Of a DNA stretch of 650 nt, positions 350 through 366 are shown in pieces. Position 1 is the stretch's first letter. Every line of letters begins with the position of its first letter. The DNA comes from Escherichia coli (GTDB lineage Bacteria; Pseudomonadota; Gammaproteobacteria; Enterobacterales; Enterobacteriaceae): assembly GCF_003334335.1 (NCBI RefSeq), contig NZ_QOWQ01000163.1; one strand, 5' to 3'. The position numbers and the translations under genes are program-made. The notes beneath the pieces were generated by a model, which did not search any database, was not told where the DNA came from, and saw only the letters and a list, made by a program, of their open reading frames with translations.

Positions 350-366
350 ATGATAATAATTATCAT
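350..366. repeat. 17-bp perfect palindrome ATGATAAT-A-ATTATCAT (8-bp arms around one central base), Fur-box-like; function unassigned
   Basis: Read directly: 350-357 ATGATAAT, 358 A, 359-366 ATTATCAT, which is the exact reverse complement of the left arm. On the other strand it reads GATGATAATTATTATCAT, close to the Fur consensus GATAATGATAATCATTATC. The palindrome is certain; any function is not. Confidence 0.6.

Follow-up and report, generated by a model that had tools for sequence, protein, structure and literature searches.

The palindrome beside cosQ in an Escherichia coli lambda-type cos junction is the catalogued nohB/nohA Fur site

We analyzed a 650-nucleotide stretch of Escherichia coli DNA (the window), which carries a lambda-type cos junction in reverse-complement orientation. 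Phage lambda is 98.5% identical to the window over all 650 bases, junction included, and many E. coli chromosomes are 100% identical to it; in those chromosomes, the flanking genes are annotated as ylcI and nohD. A match to the window is present in 4,633 of the 5,426 complete E. coli genomes, and the window itself is a further E. coli copy, from a prophage or a phage, of the noh cos junction. We mapped the junction by aligning the window with the DLP12 and Qin prophages of E. coli K-12 and with lambda (Table 1). On the lambda map, cosQ occupies nucleotides 48479–48473, which we take to be the exact coordinates of Wieczorek and Feiss (2001), and this numbering agrees with that of a construct described as 'lambda bp 48446-182 includes cosQ, cosN, cosB'. 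Within cosB lies a 25-nt inverted repeat (window 150–174 and 182–206; roughly lambda 165–109) that is 80% complementary and probably represents R1 and R2, the sites for the terminase small subunit, whose opposite orientations are known. An Rfam scan returned no match close to the gathering thresholds.

Table 1. Features of the cos junction, in window coordinates.
Feature	Position	Strand	Remarks
Nu1/nohD terminase small-subunit gene, 5' part	1..125	-	ATG at 125..123; distance to palindrome centre exactly 233 nt
cosB	~126-300		Placed by alignment with DLP12, Qin and lambda
cosN 12-nt cohesive end GGGCGGCGACCT	303..314	-	Lambda nt 1 = window 314; lambda 48502 = window 315
cosQ heptamer, packaging-termination element	338..344	-	Plus strand aggaccc, minus strand GGGTCCT
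Extended Fur operator	346..370		Hexamer-like repeats [nAAAAT][GATAAT]n[ATTATC][ATnTnC]; adjoins cosQ
17-bp palindrome ATGATAATAATTATCAT, Fur operator core	350..366		Lambda 48467-48451
Sigma-70-like promoter candidate	350..377	-	-35 GTGACA at 377..372, 16-nt spacer, -10 TATCAT at 355..350
FNR consensus TTGATCTGCATCAA, perfect	440..453		88.5 bp from the Fur box centre; separate known site
ylcI/ynfO-type gene (DUF3950), 5' part	514..650	+	Transcribed away from cos; Pfam PF13132, E = 2.9e-20

The initial annotation drew attention to a palindrome with perfect 8-bp arms just past the cosQ heptamer, and proposed a Fur box as the leading idea. The arms of ATGATAATAATTATCAT (350–357 and 359–366) are indeed 100% complementary around a central A at position 358, and five bases separate the palindrome from cosQ. 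The opposite strand reads GATAATTATTATC at 364..352 and agrees with GATAATCATTATC at 12 of 13 positions, the central base being the sole mismatch, just as the earlier estimate of about 12 of 13 core Fur consensus positions had it. The gene start that was placed about 150 bp away is the ylcI-type ATG at 514, 148 bp past the end of the palindrome. When the site was compared with the inverted-repeat models of Fur recognition, all 14 specified positions of the 7-1-7 repeat TGATAATNATTATCA were matched (window 351–365), as were 17 of the 18 specified positions of the 9-1-9 unit (window 349–367). The 19-bp Fur consensus GATAATGATAATCATTATC was matched at 16 of 19 positions (3 mismatches; window 346–364). 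The repeats of the extended operator leave room for two to four overlapping Fur dimers.

We estimated how often such matches arise by chance from 20,000 shuffles and from random sequences with the local AT-rich composition. Palindromes of at least 17 nt occurred in about 1% of shuffled windows (0.3% for the 169-nt right arm), and the 17-nt palindrome is, merely as a palindrome, only mildly unusual. The 19-bp consensus with no more than three mismatches appeared in two of the shuffles and in 7 of 20,000 AT-rich random sequences, while none of 200 dinucleotide shuffles equalled the 19-mer match found here (3 mismatches). A perfect 7-1-7 match was seen in 0 of 20,000 sequences of each background, which speaks against the chance mimicry by AT-rich DNA that the initial annotation had raised as a caveat. 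Our Fur call combines these consensus and 7-1-7 tests with a published information-theory score, used in place of a weight matrix of our own. That score, the matrix check that had been called for, comes from a 24-site model and maps onto the identical site in DLP12 at 25.3 bits.

The palindrome is the same site that has been catalogued as the Fur box of nohB (nohD, in DLP12) and nohA (in Qin). The Fur site itself is thus already known, and has been in the Fur-regulon literature since 1994. In the genome table of Chen, Schneider et al. (NAR 2007; PMC2189734), the nohB cluster is the third strongest, with four overlapping sites over 28 bp at U00096.2 coordinate 579824; by the account given there, it was first found by a Fur titration assay (Stojiljkovic et al., 1994). 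The 17-mer of DLP12 is identical to that of the window and is centred at NC_000913.3:580601. Near DLP12 the two sequence versions are offset by 777 bp, as verified on entC, and 579824 + 777 = 580601, so the published cluster centre falls exactly on the DLP12 copy of ATGATAATAATTATCAT. The nohA site (1634624, 22.3 bits; Chen et al., 2007, PMC2189734) is traced in the same paper to an in vivo selection by Vassinova and Kozyrev (2000). The nohA gene coordinates are shifted by 1976 relative to the current K-12 sequence, so that 1634624 corresponds to 1636600, exactly at the middle of GTGATAATGATTATCAT in Qin. This allele differs from the window 17-mer at 2 of 17 positions, and an oligonucleotide carrying it was gel-shifted by 150 nM Fur (PMC2189734). 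Chen et al. also chose nohA as a Fur site that overlaps a predicted sigma-70 promoter (PMC2189734).

Two main alleles of the box were apparent, ATGATAAT-A-ATTATCAT in the window and DLP12 and GTGATAAT-G-ATTATCAT in lambda and Qin, with the differences at window positions 350 and 358. Lambda thus carries the Qin allele (bp 48451–48467), 5 bp upstream of cosQ. In the window, DLP12, Qin and lambda copies alike, the box centre lies 233 nt upstream of the ATG of the Nu1 homologue, and we found no substantive difference from the catalogued nohB/nohA boxes; the literature frames the site as one in the noh promoter region. Table 4 of Chen et al. (2007) prints the nohB cluster at −133, whereas its own coordinate gives −233 from the nohD ATG, as for nohA; the printed value is probably an annotation difference or a typographical error. 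Taken with the binding data, the match makes it highly probable that Fur, the ferric uptake regulator of the host, uses the palindrome as a true operator with high affinity; iron-dependent silencing of weak transcription would be the likely consequence.

The site shares with the operators of entC, fhuA, fhuF and ryhB the 19-bp/7-1-7 architecture, overlapping multi-dimer clusters, a comparable information content and occupancy in vivo under iron-replete conditions. The iron-uptake operators, however, overlap strong promoters and are derepressed 4- to 1000-fold in Δfur strains, whereas at the cos-proximal box no robust promoter is evident and no derepression is seen in K-12. Among lambdoid phages, those that convert their hosts to Stx1 production have a Fur box in the stx1 promoter, which makes phage-borne genes iron-responsive. 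That box, too, is a host Fur operator on a lambdoid prophage, but it lies upstream of stx1A and has a clear regulated promoter and a phenotype.

Occupancy of the cos-proximal box in vivo is documented in strain CFT073 by ChIP-exo, in which Fur peak P53 (NC_004431.1:1424699–1424711) was recorded under iron-replete conditions only (Gao et al., NAR 2023; PMC10164565). The homologous 17-mer, ACGAGAATAATTATCAC, lies at 1424693–1424709; the peak overlaps these coordinates and therefore sits on the CFT073 box. In that prophage the box is again five bases past cosQ, with a cosB and a terS that differ from those of lambda. The leading idea of the initial annotation was thus well chosen, since the same site is the documented nohB/nohA Fur site and its CFT073 homologue is occupied. 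The MG1655 and W3110 ChIP-exo sheets of the same study (PMC10164565) list no peak at the DLP12 or Qin sites, for which read mappability may be the reason, as the two copies are about 96% identical. The CFT073 prophage also carries a small 'TonB family protein' gene (NC_004431.1:1423654–1423980, or 2155–2481 of locus L126 in our set) together with iss/bor, about 700 bp upstream of the cos-proximal Fur box; the former would be an iron-uptake-flavoured accessory gene.

We then considered what Fur might control at the junction. In the window, a candidate sigma-70-like promoter (10 of 12 matches) has its −10 element within the Fur box and reads across cos toward Nu1/nohD. The TATCAT hexamer is created by the window/DLP12 allele, and the promoter was not detected under the box in the lambda/Qin allele or in CFT073. 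We accordingly rejected a conserved promoter under the box, as the −35/−10 pair is found only in the window/DLP12 allele. A second promoter-like site on the minus strand (window 218–247; −35 TCGTCA, 18 nt, −10 TAAAAT; 9 of 12 matches) lies in cosB and points toward Nu1 in both the window and lambda; it scored no better than chance in our scan. In a SELEX study of sigma factors, the entries for nohB are peaks downstream of the gene, with none for this spacer, and a nohA::lacZ fusion is described as having low activity.

Expression data from fur mutants differed between strains. In MG1655 under iron-replete conditions, nohD, nohA, ybcW and ydfO were unchanged between Δfur and wild type (counts of about 0–5), and ylcI was not derepressed. 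In W3110, likewise under iron-replete conditions, RNA-seq of the Δfur strain showed lower expression of ynfO (log2 −5.1), ydfO (−2.0), ylcI (−3.9), ybcV (−3.7) and ybcW (−5.3), the opposite of Fur repression; nohD also fell. These five genes, ynfO to ybcW, were all unchanged in MG1655. In the Δfur strain of CFT073, expression rose to either side of the box: C_RS26755 (log2 +2.9), C_RS07340 (+2.3), and the genes for TerL (+1.3), the portal (+1.6) and the protease (+2.1). Because this rise grows along the late operon (terL < portal < protease), general activation of the prophage explains it as well as local repression does. The best reading of these results is that the transcriptional output of the Fur operator is weak, allele-dependent and context-dependent.

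To place the box in a wider context, we scanned viral contigs for the cosN-N23-cosQ core and obtained 122 junctions with 70 unique right flanks, which we divided into 21 families with unrelated sequence 31–120 nt past cosQ. Conservation across lambdoid right ends, a check that the initial annotation had suggested, turned out to be divided: 11 of the 21 far-flank families keep the box and 10 do not. In the former, the best member has the 7-1-7 motif with 0–3 mismatches, starting 4–8 nt after cosQ; in the latter, where cosN and cosQ are intact and a terS homologue is adjacent, the best member has 6–10 mismatches, and the distribution over all 21 is thus bimodal. At box-bearing junctions, terS is 36–100% identical to NohD and the right flanks are unrelated; cosQ-cosN alone accompanies the box without exception. 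The same scan of a genome collection returned mostly chance matches in GC-rich genomes, together with at least six true cos sites; these include an E. albertii copy and a Klebsiella sp. prophage that both have the box, the latter despite a cosN-cosQ spacer that differs at 10 of 23 positions.

Conservation within the motif is inflated in this sample by selecting on the motif, and we therefore looked at positions outside the selection. These were conserved symmetrically, with A at −10, −9 and −8 (0.81, 1.00 and 0.99), T at +9 (0.84) and C at +12 (0.90); position +10, also outside the selection, is likewise T in the lineage profile. According to Chen et al. (PMC2189734), high conservation in E. 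coli Fur sites extends past the 7-1-7 core to ±8 and ±9. The conserved −9, −8 and +9 match the 9-1-9 logo of Fur, which indicates that conservation tracks Fur specificity. For an unbiased test, we used the 56 loci (14 haplotypes) of one large family that is defined solely by anchors external to the box. The 14 specified core positions were all invariant, whereas 11 of 36 flanking non-cos positions varied (Fisher p = 0.016), and the only variable positions of the box were the degenerate centre and −8.

Judged from these sequence comparisons, lambda-type phages frequently carry the box with their cosQ-cosN module, which appears able to do without it. What is new here is that about 12 lineages whose flanks are unrelated keep the box beside cosQ, and that its conservation follows Fur specificity. 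In the literature that we searched, no paper contains both 'cosQ' and 'Fur', and neither the abutment of the site on cosQ nor its retention among lambda-type cos lineages is mentioned; 'Fur box', 'terminase' and 'prophage' occur together only in an unrelated Acinetobacter genome paper.

A chance AT-rich palindrome without function would be in keeping with the frequency of bare 17-nt palindromes in shuffled windows and with the lack of a Fur effect in K-12 expression data. It is at odds with the absence of perfect 7-1-7 matches from AT-matched controls, with the retention of the box in lineages with unrelated flanks and the depletion of polymorphism in its core, and with the published titration, in vivo selection, gel-shift and ChIP-exo evidence. 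The binding data have already refuted this explanation, and we give it practically no weight.

The initial annotation also offered the site as an operator for the adjacent protein, YlcI/YnfO, a putative ribbon-helix-helix (RHH) dimer that would regulate its own gene or control transcription across cos. In our sample, ylcI was always found with the box (32 junctions with both, none with ylcI alone), including one junction at which YlcI is just 72% identical and the spacer has diverged. A low-confidence AlphaFold2 single-sequence model of YlcI (pLDDT 60) shows two helices after an extended N-terminal segment, an arrangement that would fit an RHH fold. The reverse association, however, does not hold. 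Among unique junctions, 32 have the box and ylcI, 13 have the box alone (13 of 45 box-bearing junctions, from several far-flank families) and 12 have neither. The ORF next to the box is directed toward cos in five or more of the box-bearing families, a result that also led us to reject the notion that the box heads a divergent gene in every lineage. The ylcI ATG and the box centre are 156 bp apart, with the separate FNR site in between, and Fur binding is documented whereas YlcI binding is only putative. Nor was any RHH similarity demonstrable: YlcI matched only DUF3950 in Pfam and a family of unknown function in PHROGs, a PDB sequence search matched no solved RHH structure, and BLASTP found no similarity to an approximate Arc sequence. 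We consider an operator for YlcI a very improbable account of the box.

The intervening FNR consensus, TTGATCTGCATCAA, is centred 67 bp upstream of the ylcI ATG and is the FNR site that Grainger et al. (2007) reported for nohB and nohA/ydfO. FNR binding was detected there by ChIP-chip and EMSA, at 579,735.5 (nohB) and 1,634,713.5 (nohA), and at the nohA/ydfO site only the nohA-directed promoter was tested (Grainger et al., 2007). From its position, the better-placed FNR target would be ylcI/ynfO, which was unannotated in 2007.

Another suggestion was that the palindrome belongs to an extended packaging-termination signal, in which Fur or terminase bound just upstream of cosQ would help the motor to slow down or to recognise cosQ. 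The constancy of cosQ-cosN next to the box, across varied terS genes and right flanks, is in line with this, and the box lies on the side from which translocating terminase approaches cosQ. The cos constructs of the Feiss laboratory start at lambda 48442 or 48446 and so all contain the box, which leaves the dispensability of the box a matter of comparative evidence. Against this suggestion, the literature describes cosQ as a conserved 7-bp element, and the pattern of conservation is that of Fur's own specificity. An obligatory part of the signal is contradicted by the 10 of 21 cos lineages that lack the box with cosN and cosQ intact, among them two (L060 and L117) in which Nu1 is 99–100% identical to NohD (100% in L060). 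The distance from cosQ to the box, which varies from 4 to 8 nt, would also be unexpected for a phased component. We consider a role for the box as an extension of the termination signal improbable. The idea that the box-less lineages are PICIs packaged by lambda terminase was examined and rejected, as the adjacent protein has 180 aa and no NCBIfam match, compared with 144 aa for RppA.

We return to the palindrome as a host Fur operator. In the mechanism that we propose, Fe2+-bound Fur dimers recognise the 7-1-7/9-1-9 inverted repeat, a binding step shown by published experiments that we mapped onto the site. The flanking hexamer-like repeats would admit at least two overlapping dimers, and the protected region would then reach the edge of cosQ. 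The most likely consequence would be iron-dependent silencing of weak transcription that starts in or crosses the AT-rich junction. For the window allele, the repressed promoter would be the sigma-70-like site with its −10 element in the box, reading over cos into Nu1/nohD. The regulatory output would be small and would depend on context.

A broader role can be imagined, in which selection maintains the Fur box as an accessory to lambda-type cos sites. Fur bound there might act as an iron-dependent insulator or roadblock against non-antiterminated transcription from right-end genes into the terminase operon, or might modulate how the arriving packaging motor recognises cosQ. The hints in this direction are the roughly 12 lineages that share only cosQ-cosN, the Fur-specific conservation and the presence of the box in all standard cos constructs; we regard the idea as speculative and rather unlikely. 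What gives it interest is that cosQ of lambda, and of most E. coli lambdoid prophages, has one of the strongest Fur sites of E. coli 5 bp away. If Fur did affect packaging termination or insulate the late operon, it would be the second host factor at cos after IHF, and iron status would be linked with phage production. Like the Fur box, IHF site I1 in lambda cosB is a site for a host protein within cos that is conserved among lambda-like phages. In contrast to the Fur box, which about half of cos lineages lack, I1 has been shown to function in the initiation of packaging.

Finally, the largest box-less cos lineage (L022, L019, L030 and L032) has an intrinsic terminator directed toward cos (L022 2119–2140, minus strand), with a 9-pair stem and a T-run. 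The terminator ends at cosQ, exactly where the Fur box lies in lambda-type genomes. A terminator in place of the box hints that both types of junction may need to keep unscheduled transcription out of the terminase operon.
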